Of a stretch of 64,000 nucleotides of DNA, positions 2,500 to 63,719 are shown one piece after another. Location of the stretch: the NCBI RefSeq assembly GCF_030013205.1, contig NZ_CP122648.1; one strand, given 5' to 3'. The position numbers and the translations under genes were made by a program. Origin of the DNA: Escherichia coli (GTDB lineage: Bacteria; Pseudomonadota; Gammaproteobacteria; Enterobacterales; Enterobacteriaceae). The stretch's first letter is position 1. The number at the start of each line of letters is the position of its first letter. The notes below the pieces were generated by a model. That model saw only the letters and a program-made list of their open reading frames with translations, was not told the origin of the DNA and did not search any database.

Positions 2500-3134
2500 T
2501 GTTTTGCCGCCTTGATGAGAGTGGTTTTCACCGGGAAATAATCCGCGCCGAGATACTGTTCCGACTGGCGAATTTGCCCTTCGCTGTCGATCCAGTAGCG
2601 GTTATGCCAGCGCGCCTGGTCGGTGGAGACTTCTTCGTCCAGCACGCGAACCGGGGTTTCATCGCTGCCGACTTTGACGGTATCGGTGCCATCCCATTTG
2701 AAGACTGAGCGTGCGGTGGCGTAGCGTACCTGCTGGTACTCGGTCCAGCCCATCGTGCGCGTCCATGTTGCACCATCAACAATTTGTGCGGGTTTAATCA
2801 GCGGGTCGGCGGCAAGGTTATTCACGTCAATCAGGTTGTCGCCGCCAAGCAAAGTCTTCACCAGACGACCATGTTGTGTGACGAGAGTGGCCTGATCCTG
2901 AGTGACCCATTTTTGTTGTCCGTCTTCAGCAAAGGCCAGCACCACAAACAATTGCGGCCCGCCATTAAGCTGCATGTACTGGCTGGCGTAGGGCATATTT
3001 TGAATATCATCGTCCGTCAGCTGTACGCCTGGCGTGCCGAACAGACTGTCCCACAGCGAATTGCCCAGCTCTTTAGTCGTGGCTGAACAGGCCTGTAATA
3101 GCAGGCAGATAAGAATGAGTGCAGGTCGCTTCAC
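2496..3134 (-). CDS. yjbF: YjbF lipoprotein
   Basis: ORF 2496-3164; lipobox LLQAC; likely GTG start giving MKRPALILICLLLQACS (start coordinate uncertain by about 10 codons). Confidence 0.7.
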   Translation of the reverse strand: MKRPALILICLLLQACSATTKELGNSLWDSLFGTPGVQLTDDDIQNMPYASQYMQLNGGPQLFVVLAFAEDGQQKWVTQDQATLVTQHGRLVKTLLGGDNLIDVNNLAADPLIKPAQIVDGATWTRTMGWTEYQQVRYATARSVFKWDGTDTVKVGSDETPVRVLDEEVSTDQARWHNRYWIDSEGQIRQSEQYLGADYFPVKTTLIKAAKQ

Positions 3135-3247
3135 GACTCTTCTCCAGAGGGGCAGAATAACCACACCGGAGTGTGGTTATGGTAAATCCCTTCATACTTC
3201 AAGCCACAGATGCAATGACTCGAATTATTTTGGGGATACATACTTTA

Positions 3248-3490
3248 TTACTGGGTACTGGTGGTCGTGGTTGTTGTGGTCCCGGTATTAGAACCATCAC
3301 CGCCACCGGTTGCCGCGAGCGCGACACCCACCGCCGAGCTTACGGTGCTGACGCTGGTCGCGGAGGAACTCCCCGCCGAAACCGACGTTGCTGCCGACCC
3401 TGCCGCTTCGCCCACCTGTACAGGTGCAGCCCACGCAGAAATCGCCGCAAGCGCAGATATGGCAAAAATGCCATACAGAACTTTTTTCAT
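3248..3490 (-). CDS. yjbE: YjbE, small secreted Ser/Thr/Gly-rich protein
   Basis: 80-aa ORF with signal peptide and poly-Thr tail ([10 protein letters not shown]); AT-rich Rcs-type regulatory region upstream (3491-3790). Confidence 0.8.
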
Positions 3491-3798
3491 AACAATTTCC
3501 CTTCATTGAATGAATGGAGATTTACCCAAAAACATTTCGGGCGGGATCGAGTATACACAACTAAAGCATGCGAATTACGGTGTGGGGAATTAGCGATGGG
3601 GTTTTAGGATAATTGGAATGAATATCAAATATAAGTTTCAACTTATATATAAATAAGATTAAAAATCAAAAAGTTAAAATAGAATCAAAAATAATCAACC
3701 TACGTATTTTCCGAAATCAATCACGATTAAAAATTTATTTTAGGATTAACCTCACAGCATGATTTCCGTTAAATCACAGACAAGGGGATTTATCTGAT

Positions 3799-3830
3799 AA
3801 AAAATGCCGACATAACGTCGGCATTTTTAT
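3799..3830 (-). terminator. Rho-independent terminator downstream of pgi
   Basis: GC hairpin (aaaaatgccgacataacgtcggcattttt) flanked by A/T runs immediately 3' of the pgi stop. Confidence 0.6.
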
Positions 3831-3843
3831 TAAGGTTATTTAA

Positions 3844-5493
3844 TTAACCGCGCCACGCTTTATAGCGGTTAATCAGACCATTGGTCGAGCTATCGTGGCT
3901 GCTGATTTCTTTATCATCTTTCAGCTCTGGCAGAATACGGTTCGCCAGTTGTTTACCCAGCTCCACGCCCCACTGGTCGAAGGTGAAGATGTTCAGAATC
4001 ACGCCCTGAGTAAAGATTTTGTGCTCATACAGCGCAATCAACGCACCCAGGCTGAACGGAGTGATTTCGCGCAGCAGGATGGAGTTGGTCGGGCGGTTAC
4101 CTTCGAACACTTTGAACGGCACCACGTAGTCAAGCGTTGCCGGATCTTTACCCTGATCACGATATTCCTGCTCAACCACTTCGCGGGATTTACCAAACGC
4201 CAGCGCTTCGGTCTGAGCAAAGAAGTTAGACAGCAGTTTCTGGTGATGATCAGAGAGCGGGTTATGGGTGATAGCCGGGGCGATGAAATCGCACGGTACC
4301 ATTTTGGTTCCCTGGTGGATCAGCTGGTAGAACGCGTGCTGACCGTTAGTGCCTGGTTCACCCCAGATAATCGGGCCAGTCTGGTAATTCACGACGTTAC
4401 CGTTACGGTCAACGTACTTACCGTTGGACTCCATATTGCCCTGCTGGAAGTACGCCGCGAAACGGTGCATATACTGGTCATACGGCAGAATCGCTTCAGT
4501 TTCCGCGCCAAAGAAATTGTTGTACCAGATGCCAATCAGCGCCAGTAGTACAGGCAGGTTTTTCTCGGCAGGCGTGGTGGAGAAATGCTTGTCCATCGCG
4601 TGTGCGCCAGAAAGCAGTTCAACGAAGTTATCAAAGCCGATGGAGAGAACAATCGACAGGCCAATCGCTGACCACAAAGAGTAACGGCCGCCAACCCAGT
4701 CCCAGAACTCGAACATGTTGGCAGTATCAATACCAAACTCGCCAACGGCTTTGGCATTGGTTGAGAGCGCCGCAAAGTGTTTTGCAACGTGTTTTTCATC
4801 ACCTGCCGCTTTCAGGAACCAGTCACGCGCGCTATGGGCGTTGGTCATAGTTTCCTGAGTGGTGAAGGTTTTAGAGGCTACCAGGAACAGCGTGGTTTCC
4901 GGGTTTACTTTTTTCAGCACTTCCGCGATGTGAGTCCCATCGACGTTAGAAACAAAGTGCATGTTCAGGTGATTTTTGTACGGACGCAGTGCTTCGGTCA
5001 CCATGTACGGGCCGAGGTCAGAACCACCGATCCCGATGTTCACTACGTCAGTGATTGCTTTGCCGGTATAACCCTTCCACTCACCGGAAATAATCGCTTC
5101 CGAGAAGGTTTTCATCTTCTCCAGCACCGCGTTGACTTCTGGCATTACGTCTTTGCCATCAACCAGAATCGGGGTATTGCTACGGTTACGCAGCGCTACG
5201 TGCAGCACGGCGCGGTTTTCAGTGCGGTTGATCTTCTCGCCAGAGAACATCGACTTAATCGCGCCCGCCAGATCGCACTCTTTCGCCAGATCTTGTAATT
5301 TCGCCAGCGTCTCTTCAGTGATGCGGTTTTTGGAGTAATCCACCAGCATCTGATCGTCGAAGGTTGCGGAGAACTTAGAAAAACGATCGCCGTCTTTAGC
5401 AAAAAGATCGGCGATCGTAACGTCTTTCATTTCATCGAAGTGTTTCTGTAGTGCCTGCCAGGCAGCGGTCTGCGTTGGATTGATGTTTTTCAT
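3844..5493 (-). CDS. pgi: Glucose-6-phosphate isomerase
   Basis: ORF 3844-5499; translation [25 protein letters not shown]... is the phosphoglucose isomerase family; 549 aa from third Met. Confidence 0.95.
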
Positions 5494-6017: not shown

Positions 6018-7367
6018 ATGTCTGAAATTGTTGTCTCCAAATTTGGCGGTACCAGCGTAGCTGATTTTGACGCCATGAACCGCAGCGCTGATATTGTGCT
6101 TTCTGATGCCAACGTACGTTTAGTTGTTCTCTCGGCTTCTGCTGGTATCACTAATCTGCTGGTCGCTTTAGCTGAAGGACTGGAACCTGGCGAGCGATTC
6201 GAAAAACTCGACGCAATCCGCAATATCCAGTTTGCCATTCTGGAACGTCTGCGTTACCCGAACGTTATCCGTGAAGAGATTGAACGTCTGCTGGAGAACA
6301 TTACTGTTCTGGCAGAAGCGGCGGCGCTGGCAACGTCTCCGGCGCTGACAGATGAACTGGTCAGCCACGGCGAGCTGATGTCGACCCTGCTGTTTGTCGA
6401 AATCCTGCGCGAACGCGATGTTCAGGCACAGTGGTTTGATGTACGTAAAGTGATGCGTACCAACGACCGATTTGGTCGTGCAGAGCCAGATGTAGCCGCG
6501 CTGGCGGAACTGGCCTCGCTGCAGCTGCTCCCACGCCTCAATGAAGGCTTAGTGATCACCCAGGGATTTATCGGTAGCGAAAATAAAGGTCGGACAACGA
6601 CGCTTGGCCGTGGAGGCAGCGATTATACGGCAGCCTTGCTGGCGGAGGCTTTACACGCATCTCGTGTTGATATCTGGACCGACGTCCCGGGCATCTACAC
6701 CACCGATCCACGCGTGGTTTCCGCAGCAAAACGCATTGATGAAATCGCGTTTGCCGAAGCGGCAGAGATGGCAACTTTTGGTGCAAAAGTACTGCATCCG
6801 GCAACGTTGCTACCCGCAGTACGTAGCGATATCCCGGTCTTTGTTGGCTCCAGCAAAGACCCACGCGCAGGTGGTACGCTGGTGTGCAATAAAACTGAAA
6901 ATCCGCCGCTATTCCGCGCGCTGGCGCTTCGTCGCAATCAGACTCTGCTCACTTTGCACAGCCTGAATATGCTGCATTCTCGCGGTTTCCTCGCGGAAGT
7001 TTTCGGCATACTCGCGCGGCATAATATTTCGGTAGACTTAATCACCACGTCAGAAGTGAGCGTGGCATTAACCCTTGATACCACCGGTTCAACCTCCACT
7101 GGCGATACCTTGCTGACGCAATCTCTGCTGATGGAGCTGTCTGCACTATGCCGGGTAGAAGTGGAGGAAGGTCTGGCGCTGGTCGCGTTGATTGGCAATG
7201 ACCTGTCAAAAGCCTGCGGCGTTGGCAAAGAGGTATTCGGCGTACTGGAACCGTTCAACATTCGCATGATTTGTTACGGCGCATCCAGCCATAACCTGTG
7301 CTTCCTGGTGCCCGGCGAAGATGCCGAGCAGGTGGTGCAAAAACTGCATTTTAATTTGTTTGAGTAA
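6018..7367 (+). CDS. lysC: Lysine-sensitive aspartokinase III
   Basis: 449-aa ORF MSEIVVSKFGGTSVADFDAMNRSADIVL...; aspartate kinase family plus ACT domains. Confidence 0.95.
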   Translation: MSEIVVSKFGGTSVADFDAMNRSADIVLSDANVRLVVLSASAGITNLLVALAEGLEPGERFEKLDAIRNIQFAILERLRYPNVIREEIERLLENITVLAEAAALATSPALTDELVSHGELMSTLLFVEILRERDVQAQWFDVRKVMRTNDRFGRAEPDVAALAELASLQLLPRLNEGLVITQGFIGSENKGRTTTLGRGGSDYTAALLAEALHASRVDIWTDVPGIYTTDPRVVSAAKRIDEIAFAEAAEMATFGAKVLHPATLLPAVRSDIPVFVGSSKDPRAGGTLVCNKTENPPLFRALALRRNQTLLTLHSLNMLHSRGFLAEVFGILARHNISVDLITTSEVSVALTLDTTGSTSTGDTLLTQSLLMELSALCRVEVEEGLALVALIGNDLSKACGVGKEVFGVLEPFNIRMICYGASSHNLCFLVPGEDAEQVVQKLHFNLFE

Positions 7368-9112: not shown

Positions 9113-10060
9113 ATGGAAAACAGTGACGATATCCGTTTGATTGTGAAGATTGCCCAACTCTATTACGAACAGGATATGACGCAGGCGCAAATCGCGCGCG
9201 AACTGGGTATTTACCGCACCACCATCAGCCGCTTGCTTAAACGAGGCCGCGATCAGGGAATTGTCACCATCGCCATCAACTATGACTACAACGAAAATCT
9301 CTGGCTGGAGCAGCAACTGAAGCAAAAGTTTGGCCTGAAAGACGTTGTGGTGGTGTCGGGAAATGATGAGGATGAAGAGACTCAACTGGCGATGATGGGG
9401 TTACACGGCGCGCAACTGCTGGATCGCTTGCTGGAGCCTGGCGATATTGTCGGTTTTTCCTGGGGTCGCGCGGTGAGCGCACTGGTTGAAAACTTGCCGC
9501 AGGCGGGGCAATCGCGGCAGTTAATCTGCGTACCAATTATTGGCGGACCGTCCGGTAAACTCGAAAGCCGCTATCACGTAAACACATTAACCTACAGCGC
9601 GGCAGCGAAGCTGAAAGGGGAATCGCATCTCGCGGATTTTCCGGCTCTGCTGGATAACCCATTAATTCGTAATGGGATCATGCAGTCTCAGCACTTTAAA
9701 ACCATCTCTGCCTACTGGGATAATCTGGATGTCGCCCTGGTGGGAATTGGCTCACCGGCCATTCGCGACGGCGCTAACTGGCATGCGTTTTATGGTGGTG
9801 AAGAGAGTGACGACCTGAATGCCCGCCAGGTTGCTGGCGATATTTGCTCGCGCTTTTATGATATTCACGGCGCAATGGTTGAAACGAATATGAGCGAAAA
9901 AACACTCTCTATCGAAATGAATAAATTAAAGCAGGCGCGGTATTCCATTGGCATTGCCATGAGTGAAGAAAAATACAGCGGAATTGTTGGTGCACTGCGT
10001 GGAAAATATATTAATTGTCTGGTAACGAATAGCAGCACAGCTGAACTATTACTGAAATAA
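9113..10060 (+). CDS. sorC: SorC-family transcriptional regulator of the sorbose operon
   Basis: ORF 9029-10060; start set at MENSDDIRL preceded by AGGAGG; N-terminal HTH (MTQAQIARELGIYRTTISRLLKRGR) plus sugar-binding domain; 315 aa. Confidence 0.8.
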   Translation: MENSDDIRLIVKIAQLYYEQDMTQAQIARELGIYRTTISRLLKRGRDQGIVTIAINYDYNENLWLEQQLKQKFGLKDVVVVSGNDEDEETQLAMMGLHGAQLLDRLLEPGDIVGFSWGRAVSALVENLPQAGQSRQLICVPIIGGPSGKLESRYHVNTLTYSAAAKLKGESHLADFPALLDNPLIRNGIMQSQHFKTISAYWDNLDVALVGIGSPAIRDGANWHAFYGGEESDDLNARQVAGDICSRFYDIHGAMVETNMSEKTLSIEMNKLKQARYSIGIAMSEEKYSGIVGALRGKYINCLVTNSSTAELLLK

Positions 10061-10291
10061 AAATCTTCCCGATGTTTACCGTAATAAAAATTACGGCGGG
10101 TCCCTATTATCTAAAATCAGGAGTCTGTTATGCAAACGTGGTTAAATTTGCAGGATAAAATCATTATCGTCACCGGCGGCGCATCCGGTATTGGTCTGGC
10201 GATTGTAGAGGAATTATTAGCACAAGGCGCAAACGTACAGATGGTCGATATTCACGGTGGCGATGGTCAATATGAAGGTCATAAAGGCTAT

Positions 10292-10300
10292 CAGTTTTGG
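10292..10300. repeat. IS1 target-site duplication, left copy (cagttttgg)
   Basis: 9 bp identical to 11069-11077, immediately flanking the IS1 inverted repeats. Confidence 0.85.
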
Positions 10301-10355
10301 GGTGATGCTGCCAACTTACTGATTTAGTGTATGATGGTGTTTTTGAGGTGCTCCA

Positions 10356-10631
10356 GTGGCTTCTGTTTCTATCAGCTGTCCCTCCTGTTCAGCTACTGAC
10401 GGGGTGGTGCGTAACGGCAAAAGCACCGCCGGACATCAGCGCTATCTCTGCTCTCACTGCCGTAAAACATGGCAACTACAGTTCACTTACGCCGCCTCTC
10501 AGCCCGGTACGCACCAGAAAATCATTGATATGGCCATGAATGGCGTCGGATGTCGCGCCAGTGCACGCATTATTGGCGTTGGCCTCAACACGATTTTCCG
10601 CCACTTAAAAAACTCAGGCCGCAGTCGGTAA
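10356..10631 (+). CDS. insA: IS1 InsA (transposition inhibitor / N-terminal part of InsAB' transposase)
   Basis: 91-aa [46 protein letters not shown]... with zinc-finger cysteines. Confidence 0.95.
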
Positions 10632-11053
10632 CCTCGCGCATACAACCGGGCAGTGATGTGATTGTCTGCGCTGAAATGGACGAACAGTGGGGCTACGTCG
10701 GTGCTAAATCACGTCAGCGCTGGCTGTTTTACGCGTATGACAGGATGCGGAGGACGGTTGTGGCGCACGTCTTCGGTGAACGCACTCTGGCCACACTGGA
10801 GCGTCTTCTGAGCCTGCTGTCGGCCTTTGAGGTCGTGGTATGGATGACGGATGGCTGGCCGCTGTATGAATCACGCCTGAAGGGAAAGCTGCACGTTATC
10901 AGCAAGCGTTATACTCAGCGCATTGAGCGGCATAACCTGAATCTGAGACAACATCTGGCAAGGCTGGGACGGAAGTCACTGTCGTTCTCAAAATCGGTGG
11001 AGCTGCATGACAAGGTCACCGGGCATTATCTGAACATAAAACACTATCAGTAA
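10550..11053 (+). CDS. insB: IS1 InsB (catalytic part of the InsAB' transposase made by -1 frameshift at TTAAAAAACTC)
   Basis: 167-aa ORF in the -1 frame overlapping the insA 3' end; slippery A-run present near 10600. Confidence 0.9.
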
Positions 11054-11068
11054 GTTGGAGTCATTACC

Positions 11069-11077
11069 CAGTTTTGG
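11069..11077. repeat. IS1 target-site duplication, right copy (cagttttgg)
   Basis: Identical to 10292-10300. Confidence 0.85.
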
Positions 11078-30781: not shown

Positions 30782-31711
30782 TTAATCCAGCGTTGGGTTC
30801 ATGTGCCGTAGATCGTATGGCGTGATCTGGTAGACGTAATAGTTGAGCCAGTTGGTAAACAGCAAATTACCGTGACTACGCCAGCTCGCTCGCGGTGTAT
30901 TTTGCGGATCATTATGCGGAAAATAGTTATACGGTACATCCGGGTCCAGTCCGGCTTCCACATCGCGGAAAAATTCCTGCGCCAGCGTTTGCGCATCATA
31001 TTCGGGATGGCCCGTCACAAAGGCAATGCGCTTATCTTTGCTGGCAAACAGATATGCATCCCCTTCTTCCGTCTCTGCCAGAATTTCCAGATCGGTATAA
31101 TCACGAATCAACGCTGCCGGAAAGTCAGCATAGCGCGAATGTGGTGCCAGGAATGAATCATCAAAGCCACGCGTCAGAAGCGCATGAGGATGGAGAATAT
31201 GATGCTCGTAAACGCCAGAGAGTTTGTCGGTGCGGGTTTGCTTAGGAATGCCGTAGAGGATATTGAGCGCGGCCTGGACCGCCCAACAGACAAACAGCGT
31301 CGAGGTGACGTGATCTTTCGACCACTCCAGCACCTGTTTGATCTGCGGCCAGTAAGCGACATCATTAAACTCCACCAGGCCCAGCGGCGCGCCGGTAACT
31401 ATCAGACCGTCAAAGTTTTGTTCCTGAATATCTTCAAAGTCACAGTAGAAGTTATTCAGATGCTCTGCGGGCGTGTTGCGCGATTCACGGGAATCGATGC
31501 GCAACAGCTGAATATCGACCTGCAAAGGTGAGTTTGAAAGCAGGCGCAGAAACTGATTTTCAGTTTCGATCTTCTTCGGCATCAGGTTAAGGATAAGCAC
31601 CTTTAGCGGACGAATTTCCTGACCAGACGCGCGAGAAGTTGTCATCACAAAGACGTTTTCTTCACGCAAGAAATTGACGGCGGGTAGCTCGTCCGGCACA
31701 CGAATCGGCAT
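30782..31711 (-). CDS. metA: Homoserine O-succinyltransferase
   Basis: 309-aa [31 protein letters not shown]... Confidence 0.95.
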
Positions 31712-31867: not shown

Positions 31868-32311
31868 ATGGTTATTAGTATTCGCCGCTCACGGCATGAG
31901 GAAGGGGAGGAACTGGTTGCGATTTGGTGCCGTTCTGTCGATGCCACTCACGATTTTTTATCAGCAGAGTATCGGGCCGAGCTGGAAGAGCTGGTGCGTT
32001 CCTTTCTGCCGGAAGCACCGTTGTGGGTCGCGGTTAATGAGCGGGATCGGCCGGTTGGGTTTATGTTGTTAAGTGGGCAGCATATGGATGCGCTGTTTAT
32101 CGATCCTGATGTGCGCGGCTGCGGCGTGGGTCGGATGCTGGTGGAACATGCGCTCTCGATGGCACCGGAACTGACAACCAATGTTAATGAGCAAAATAAG
32201 CAGGCTGTTGGGTTCTATAAGAAGATGGGTTTTAAGGTTACGGGACGCTCTGAGGTGGACGATTTGGGGAAACCGTATCCGTTGCTGAATCTGGCGTATG
32301 TGGGGGAATAA
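31868..32311 (+). CDS. yjaB: GNAT-family N-acetyltransferase
   Basis: 147-aa ORF with acetyl-CoA binding motif (RGCGVGRMLVEHAL). Confidence 0.85.
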   Translation: MVISIRRSRHEEGEELVAIWCRSVDATHDFLSAEYRAELEELVRSFLPEAPLWVAVNERDRPVGFMLLSGQHMDALFIDPDVRGCGVGRMLVEHALSMAPELTTNVNEQNKQAVGFYKKMGFKVTGRSEVDDLGKPYPLLNLAYVGE

Positions 32312-32384
32312 GCTGCCCCTGCCGTGCCTGCCCAGGCTGGAGAAGACGCGCCAGCGTCGCACCCGGCATTTTTTTCACCAACGC

Positions 32385-32413
32385 AAAAAAGGCCATCCTG
32401 ACGGATGGCCTTT
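32385..32413 (-). terminator. rrn operon terminator (T1-like)
   Basis: Minus-strand hairpin aaaggccatccgtcaggatggcc followed by a U-run, 3' of the 5S gene. Confidence 0.7.
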
Positions 32414-32424
32414 CGCTTAATTTG

Positions 32425-32544
32425 ATGCCTGGCAGTTCCCTACTCTCGCATGGGGAGACCCCACACTACCATCGGCGCTACGGCGTTTCACTTCTGAGTT
32501 CGGCATGGGGTCAGGTGGGACCACCGCGCTAAGGCCGCCAGGCA
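32425..32544 (-). rRNA. rrfE: 5S ribosomal RNA
   Basis: 120 nt matching the enterobacterial 5S sequence (minus strand TGCCTGGCGGCC...GGGAACTGCCAGGCAT). Confidence 0.95.
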
Positions 32545-32637: not shown

Positions 32638-35541
<2,904 letters not shown>

Positions 35542-35734
35542 TCACAACCCGAAGATGTTTCTTTCGATTCATCATCGTGTTGCGAAAATTTGAGAGACTC
35601 ACGAACAACTTTCGTTGTTCAGTGTTTCAATTTTCAGCTTGATCCAGATTTTTAAAGAGCAAATATCTCAAACATCACCCGAAGATGAGTTTTGAGATAT
35701 CAAGGCAGGTGACTTTCACTCACAAACCAGCAAG

Positions 35735-35810
35735 TGGCGTCCCCTAGGGGATTCGAACCCCTGTTACCGCCGTGAAAGGGCGGTGTCCTGGGCCTCTAGA
35801 CGAAGGGGAC
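35735..35810 (-). tRNA. gltV: tRNA-Glu (UUC) in the 16S-23S spacer
   Basis: Minus strand GTCCCCTTCGTCTAGAGGCCCAGGACACCGCCCTTTCACGGCGGTAACAGGGGTTCGAATCCCCTAGGGGACGCCA. Confidence 0.95.
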
Positions 35811-35895: not shown

Positions 35896-37437
<1,542 letters not shown>

Positions 37438-63433: not shown

Positions 63434-63719
63434 CTGTCCATTGAGCGGACAGTTTGTGCAACACTATTTTGTTGACCGGAAAATGGAACACTTTCCGCAA
63501 TGCCTGTTGCTATCACGCTTAAACCATTTCATTGCGATTTACACAGAACGGACGTCCTGTCGCAGTATATTAAGTCGTCGATAGAAACAAGCATTGAAAG
63601 GCACAGCAGTAGTCAAACAGTGTGAAACGCTACTGGCGCCTTACAGCGCAAAAAGGCTGGTGACTAAAAAGTCACCAGCCATCAGCCTGATTTCTCAGGC
63701 TGCAACCGGAAGGGTTGGC
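63434..63719 (-). promoter_or_regulatory. rplL-rpoB intergenic leader (attenuator / RNase III processing region)
   Basis: About 290 bp structured spacer between the rplL stop and rpoB start, as in the rplKAJL-rpoBC operon. Confidence 0.5.

Follow-up and report, generated by a model that had tools for sequence, protein, structure and literature searches.

A common yjaA-less allele of the spacer between yjaB and rrnE in an Escherichia coli of the probable swine O139:H1/ST1 lineage

The 64-kb stretch of DNA analyzed here (the window) lacks yjaA between yjaB and the 5S rRNA gene of rrnE. Very probably, this is the yjaA-less form of the rrnE-yjaB spacer that is common in E. coli, and the strain belongs to the O139:H1/ST1 lineage of phylogroup D, known from edema disease in swine. 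Comparison with K-12 showed that the absence of yjaA is an allele replacement, in which 111 bp stand opposite 518 bp, rather than a clean deletion.

In the window, yjaB on the + strand and rrnE on the - strand are convergent, with yjaB running toward the 5S gene. The locus contains the following features:

30782..31711, - strand: metA, flanking yjaB on the side away from rrnE, with conserved synteny
31868..32311, + strand: yjaB, GNAT peptidyl-lysine N-acetyltransferase of 147 aa (ORF list, NCBIfam PRK10514, ETEC1748 RefSeq annotation)
32307..32417, 111 bp: allele-specific segment of the yjaA-less haplotype (K-12-to-window blastn breakpoints, side-by-side sequences)
32332..32367 (about), - strand: degenerate REP-like palindromic element, GCCGGGTGCGACGCTGGCGCGTCTTCTCCAGCCTGG on the - strand
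32385..32413, - strand: predicted rrn intrinsic terminator, stem GGCCATCC/GGATGGCC with a 4-nt loop, then U6 on the rrnE transcript
32425..32544, - strand: rrfE, 5S rRNA gene of rrnE (Rfam RF00001, 93.2 bits, which places it at 32427-32542; K-12 rrfE alignment)
32638-35541, - strand: 23S rRNA gene of rrnE (Rfam; ETEC1748 RefSeq annotation)
35738-35810, - strand: tRNA-Glu gene of rrnE (Rfam; ETEC1748 RefSeq annotation)
35896-37437, - strand: 16S rRNA gene of rrnE (Rfam; ETEC1748 RefSeq annotation)

YjaB matches the NCBIfam PRK10514 acetyltransferase model with 277.8 bits, and GNAT Pfam domains were also matched. Its gene shares 95.4% nucleotide identity with the K-12 copy, and the two differ at the C-terminus, which reads LAYVGE in the window and LAYVGA in K-12 (last codon and stop GAA TAA versus GCG TAG). 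The 3' end of the 5S gene at 32425 was set by alignment to the 120-nt rrfE annotation of K-12. Together with the yjaB ORF, which ends at 32311, this alignment yields a spacer of 113 bp (32312-32424), the length given in the first-pass annotation. That annotation also had the gap taken up by the rrn terminator hairpin; the hairpin is present but fills only 26 nt (32388-32413), and the spacer outside it consists mostly of the degenerate REP-like element and of T/A tracts. Small ORFs of 25-52 aa within the spacer were dismissed as chance, and its weak Rfam matches to Phe_leader, isrD and BTnc231 as chance or as a generic terminator hairpin.

The gene order of K-12 MG1655 is rrsE-gltV-rrlE-rrfE-yjaA-yjaB-metA-aceB-aceA-aceK-arpA-iclR-metH, with the rrnE-yjaA-yjaB locus at b4010-b4012; the order rrfE-yjaA-yjaB given in the first-pass annotation thus agrees with MG1655. 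The flanking synteny (purH-rrnE ... yjaB-metA-aceBAK-arpA-iclR-metH) is common to K-12 and the window, at 97-99% identity. The common sequence ends at sharp breakpoints, 7 nt beyond the 5S gene (CAAATTA) and at the last codon of yjaB. Between them, 518 bp of K-12 (positions 6168-6685 of the K-12 stretch compared, L001), which comprise a terminator of their own, yjaA and a 3' spacer, face the 111 bp of the window. The latter consist of the degenerate REP and the canonical rrn terminator and have no residual similarity to the K-12 yjaA cassette. Because the two segments share nothing, terminator hairpin included, the window allele is a replacement and not K-12 minus a gene.

Searches of the whole 64-kb window likewise found no homologue of yjaA. 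K-12 YjaA, which matches NCBIfam NF041448 (YjaA family stress response protein) with 177.4 bits, gave no tblastn match in the window better than E = 1.2, and blastn with the K-12 yjaA cassette returned only chance matches of 11-16 nt. The Clermont yjaA primers, in both the 2000 and the 2013 versions, have no site in the 64 kb at up to 3 mismatches, with a positive K-12 control, and the 211-bp yjaA.1b/yjaA.2b product is not predicted from the window.

The terminator scan described the hairpin at 32388-32413 as an 11-bp stem with 6 G-C pairs and a 4-nt loop. This simple scan flagged it on the + strand only; folding of the - strand RNA gives the hairpin followed by U6, which corresponds to A6 at 32385-32390 on the + strand. 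With its GC-rich stem-loop and the U tract on the transcript, the hairpin is predicted to be a rho-independent terminator. It differs from the K-12 hairpin at this locus (CCCCGGTCCATAAGGCCGGGG in K-12 versus GGCCATCCGTCAGGATGGCC in the window). E. coli has an identical hairpin downstream of rrfG, as does Kosakonia after its 5S gene; in Salmonella and Citrobacter, the hairpins 3' of 5S are related to it. As a canonical rrn intrinsic terminator with a U6 tract, it would end the rrnE transcript, and the same hairpin probably stops the converging yjaB transcript as well, since it is palindromic and may therefore terminate from the opposite side. In the A run at 32385-32390, from which the U tract of the rrnE transcript derives, the window has 6 bases, whereas all 17 near-identical genomes and the rrnG copy have 5; the extra base may be genuine or may reflect a sequencing error in a homopolymer.

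The element at about 32332-32367 appears to be a decayed REP, a soft assignment for which we use the term REP-like only. Escherichia sp. E1V33 has an intact REP in the corresponding place, to which the window element is 91% identical over 35 nt. The window element also matches the REP-derived naRNA4 family of Rfam, weakly and far below the gathering score (24.6 bits, E 0.01). The strict form GCCKGATGCGRCGY-N6-RCGYCTTATCMGGCCTAC, which we take to be the REP consensus, has no match in the window at up to 3 mismatches; the length of its spacer does not suit REPs of this type, and the window copy has decayed. The 113-bp spacer as a whole would act as functional punctuation, formed by the terminator and the adjoining decayed REP. 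The REP in the E1V33 spacer matches a further REP copy at window 16712-16741. REP copies are also contained in the extra sequence between aceA and aceK of K-12, where the intergenic region measures about 177-182 bp versus about 44-48 bp in the window (27530-27577); one of these copies matches window 16712-16751.

Both forms of the spacer are widespread in the species. Among 5,426 complete E. coli genomes, yjaA is present in 2,594 (median one copy, with as many as 3 matches in a few genomes and a single plasmid-borne match), and the yjaA-less junction is present in 2,813. The junction query runs from the yjaB 3' end into the spacer and was counted at 80% coverage or more, with K-12-type genomes matching the yjaB part only. 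Together, the two counts account for 5,407 of the 5,426 genomes, split about 48:52, and the yjaB-5S locus in E. coli is essentially biallelic. The yjaA-less alleles are 88-100% identical to one another, and the versions in O157:H7, IAI39 and BL21 are 89-93% identical to that of the window. As these copies diverge from one another, the yjaA-less allele is read as old and non-coding. For the evolutionary history of the locus, we infer two old alleles, one of 111 bp with REP and terminator and one of 518 bp with terminator and yjaA, which would pass from lineage to lineage when the conserved flanks recombine homologously; each of the two occurs in about half of E. coli.

By contrast, a recent lineage-specific deletion of yjaA from a K-12-like locus, which would fit the fact that the gene is missing exactly at its K-12 position, is extremely improbable. 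All 111 bp, the terminator included, are unlike the K-12 cassette, and the junction occurs in many backgrounds, among them O157:H7, IAI39 and BL21, and also in Escherichia sp. E1V33. Moreover, none of the 17 close ST1 relatives described below carries yjaA.

Side observations at this locus concern three further sequences. The dog urinary isolate CUVET17-1418 (NZ_CP098919.1, L004 776-2480) has the yjaA-less allele with an IS3-family element inserted in yjaB. A draft labelled E. coli SCPM-O-B-8794 (NZ_JAATUR010000012.1, L008 3380-3570) has a third sequence type after yjaB, which ends in AYIRD before the stop and is followed by an unrelated spacer, with no yjaA in the 135 bp left before the contig end. 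Its metA is only 89.7% identical to that of K-12, and the genome probably represents a cryptic Escherichia clade, not E. coli proper. In E. albertii (L009 3380-3462), the contig ends 21 bp past yjaB.

The window is ~100% identical over 24.4 kb to 17 swine chromosomes, with the next lineage at 98.2%. The 17 relatives include ETEC1748 (NZ_CP122719.1), W13-16 and P15-25, the last two of which are named O139:H1. ETEC1748 has the same gene content as the window, including an IS1 in the sorbose operon, and differs from it at 10 positions in 38.9 kb (about 99.97% identity): an extra A at 32385, SNPs at 3441 and 35404, and a 7-nt variant cluster in the 23S gene. Isolates of O139:H1 ST1 from edema disease have been typed as phylogroup D (PMC11052496). 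Because the window is arpA-positive and yjaA-negative and nearly identical to O139:H1/ST1 genomes, we place it in this lineage, and these near-identical relatives point to phylogroup D. The near-identity to swine genomes, together with 97% identity to K-12 in this region, bears out the first-pass view that the genotype argues against a K-12-like strain.

The 23S variant cluster lies at 33809-33819 (around nt 1723-1733 of the gene) and comprises 7 substitutions in 11 nt relative to ETEC1748 and K-12 rrlE (GCGACTTGCTCGT against GTCCCTCGCGGAT); the cluster resembles the alternative hairpin alleles that are swapped between rrn operons. The sorbose utilisation/PTS island (regulator, SDR dehydrogenase, PTS IIA-IID and sorE) occupies window 9113-15603, between rluF and pepE. 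Its SDR gene is split by the IS1 at about 10356-11053, and two pseudogene halves are annotated in ETEC1748. The K-12 stretch compared, which covers purH through the first 2.2 kb of metH, stops short of this island.

The close relatives also bear on whether yjaA was moved in the source genome to a place outside the 64-kb window. Only 64 kb are readable, and some E. coli genomes have up to 3 matches, one of them plasmid-borne. A chimeric query, which joined the yjaB region to K-12 yjaA in opposite orientation, was searched at megablast sensitivity. In the 17 closest complete chromosomes it found yjaA in 0/17, each chromosome matching at one place with the yjaB part only; there is therefore no yjaA anywhere on those chromosomes. 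Across the collection, the same query matched 8,057 places, which is consistent with 5,425 yjaB and roughly 2,600 yjaA matches. Moreover, yjaA-positive genomes have a median of one copy, and the typing of O139:H1/ST1 as phylogroup D needs a yjaA-negative result (PMC11052496). Given these data, a displaced yjaA is very unlikely.

The second typing marker in the window, arpA, is intact:

23638..25824, + strand: arpA (espL4 in RefSeq), intact, 728 aa (ETEC1748 annotation, Pfam; collinear with K-12 arpA)
25804..26203, 400 bp: in-silico Clermont arpA amplicon (AceK.f and ArpA1.r both perfect)

ArpA contains an N-terminal ShET2 domain (Pfam PF07906, 322.8 bits) and ankyrin repeats (Ank families). 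The sites of the two primers lie at 26184-26203 (-) and 25804-25823 (+), and the intact gene with its 400-bp product, together with the yjaA searches by tblastn, blastn and primers, supports the initial reading of the window as yjaA-negative and arpA-positive. In the phylogroup-E assay, which yields a 301-bp product, ArpAgpE.f has a 3'-terminal C>T mismatch in the window, and ArpAgpE.r has a 3'-terminal G>A mismatch and one internal mismatch. K-12, a non-E strain, has identical mismatches at both 3' ends. As both primers are 3'-mismatched, as in K-12, an E-type arpA allele is not expected. The chuA and TspE4.C2 primer pairs have no site in the 64-kb window; these loci sit elsewhere on the chromosome, and the window likewise contains none of the MLST or serotype loci. 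The primer sequences were verified against a published table (PMC4322292).

The Clermont typing schemes exploit exactly this yjaA/arpA polymorphism (triplex PCR, 2000; quadruplex PCR, 2013; ClermonTyping, 2018; PMC4322292, PMC6113867), and the yjaA-less, arpA-positive state is thus already known as a typing polymorphism and is not new biology. The genotype of the window fits the quadruplex profiles of phylogroups A, B1, D or E and rules out B2, F, C and K-12-like A strains; the profile of phylogroup D is arpA+ chuA+ yjaA- (PMC4322292). Whereas these assays score yjaA as present or absent, the comparison made here shows that absence corresponds to a distinct 111-bp allele with a REP-like element and the canonical terminator. 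For users of Clermont typing, "yjaA-negative" therefore means a distinct allele, held by about 52% of finished genomes.

To place the two alleles in a wider context, species-representative genomes were scanned with YjaB, and the yjaB-5S interval was then compared. Kosakonia sp. S29 and Phytobacter diazotrophicus have yjaA between yjaB and 5S, in the same slot and orientation, with 65% and 66% amino acid identity, respectively. The interval lacks yjaA in Phytobacter massiliensis, Salmonella enterica subsp. arizonae and diarizonae, two Citrobacter species and Escherichia sp. E1V33. In Escherichia whittamii (L007, NZ_JACSQI010000001.1, 3001-3958), we found a K-12-type cassette with 99.2% nucleotide identity (yjaA 99.7%, yjaB 98.6%), while metA, which adjoins the imported segment, is only 93.2% identical to K-12. 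As yjaB-yjaA is nearly identical to K-12 while the neighbouring metA has diverged, these sequences clearly point to a recent acquisition of the K-12-type yjaA allele by E. whittamii through cross-species recombination. Horizontal allele transfer of this kind is one way in which PCR phylotyping can mislead.

A second copy of the yjaA-less arrangement is preserved as a relic beside rrnG. The rrnG 3' flank contains the remains of a yjaA-less rrnE flank, namely the 5S gene, the same terminator, half of the REP and the last ~16 codons of yjaB. The relic is found in K-12 (NC_000913 2725925-2725987; L005 1626-1688), in L003 (2455-2573) and in Citrobacter (L029 3001-3428). In K-12 it is annotated as a 20-aa ORF between kgtP and rrfG, yfiS, with the sequence MEVGKLGKPYPLLNLAYVGV; YjaB of the window ends in ...DDLGKPYPLLNLAYVGE. 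The rrnG flank (kgtP-yfiS-rrfG) is 86% identical to the window over 281 aligned columns, including a 35-nt gap, and its yjaB part matches at 46/49 nt. It has the same order relative to 5S as the window, but only a fragment of yjaB, and lacks the outer REP half (22 bp) together with some 13 bp of the spacer next to it.

The yjaA-less junction of the window could in principle also be an assembly artefact, in which a mis-joined rrn repeat attached the 3' flank of another operon to yjaB. The rrnG 3' flank does resemble the spacer, with 94.7% identity in the terminator and part of the REP, and the A6 homopolymer at 32385-32390 is unlike the A5 of every relative. However, the junction is not within the repeat; the sequence that leads from yjaB into the spacer is unique. 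The junction also recurs in thousands of independently finished genomes, and the rrnG flank carries a yjaB fragment, not the whole gene. A mis-join is thus hardly conceivable.

At the kgtP-5S site of Citrobacter sp. NCU1, the relic is longer and starts with the same yjaB codon as in E. coli. It is 96% identical over 320 bp to the rrnE flank of NCU1 itself, which suggests gene conversion between rrn 3' flanks. On the evidence of the yfiS relic, exchange between rrn operons can reach into flanking unique DNA and yield a small ORF. A narrow literature search found no account of this origin of yfiS and, for yjaA with rrnE or for yfiS, nothing on the structure of this locus.

The evidence on the direction of change conflicts: the synteny of Kosakonia and Phytobacter suggests that yjaA is ancestral, and the rrnG relic shared with Citrobacter suggests that the yjaA-less arrangement is also very old. 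In one reconstruction, the yjaA-less allele would be ancestral in Escherichia and the cassette regained later by recombination from another enterobacterium, so that the window lost nothing. This history would account for the lack of yjaA in Salmonella, Citrobacter and several Escherichia lineages, for the yjaA-less flank relics of E. coli and Citrobacter, which occupy the orthologous kgtP-rrfG site and share their starting yjaB codon, and for the non-canonical terminator that the K-12 cassette brings; the cassette is also demonstrably transferable, as in E. whittamii. It is harder to reconcile with Kosakonia and Phytobacter, in which yjaA occupies the same slot and orientation and has diverged (65-69% nt) roughly in line with yjaB (72%), a match that favours vertical descent and repeated loss. 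Phytobacter shows both states, and no donor has been identified. We regard ancestral absence as quite possible, if somewhat short of an even chance, and lean modestly toward ancestral presence with loss.

The fuller history that we consider has about an even chance of being correct. It posits a long-lived two-allele locus, in which yjaA would have been in the slot before the split of Escherichia, Kosakonia and Phytobacter, would have been lost repeatedly and would now be shuffled by recombination. Gene conversion between rrn operons would repeatedly have spilled past the 5S gene and copied the yjaA-less rrnE flank, with the 3' end of yjaB, beside rrnG; the relic would be what K-12 translates today as YfiS, a protein of 20 aa.

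Finally, three Rfam families matched elsewhere in the window above their gathering scores: P26 at 63654-63715, just upstream of rplL; STnc430 at 3687-3835, between yjbE and pgi; and StyR-44 at 35549-35657, in the rrnE spacer just upstream of the 23S gene.
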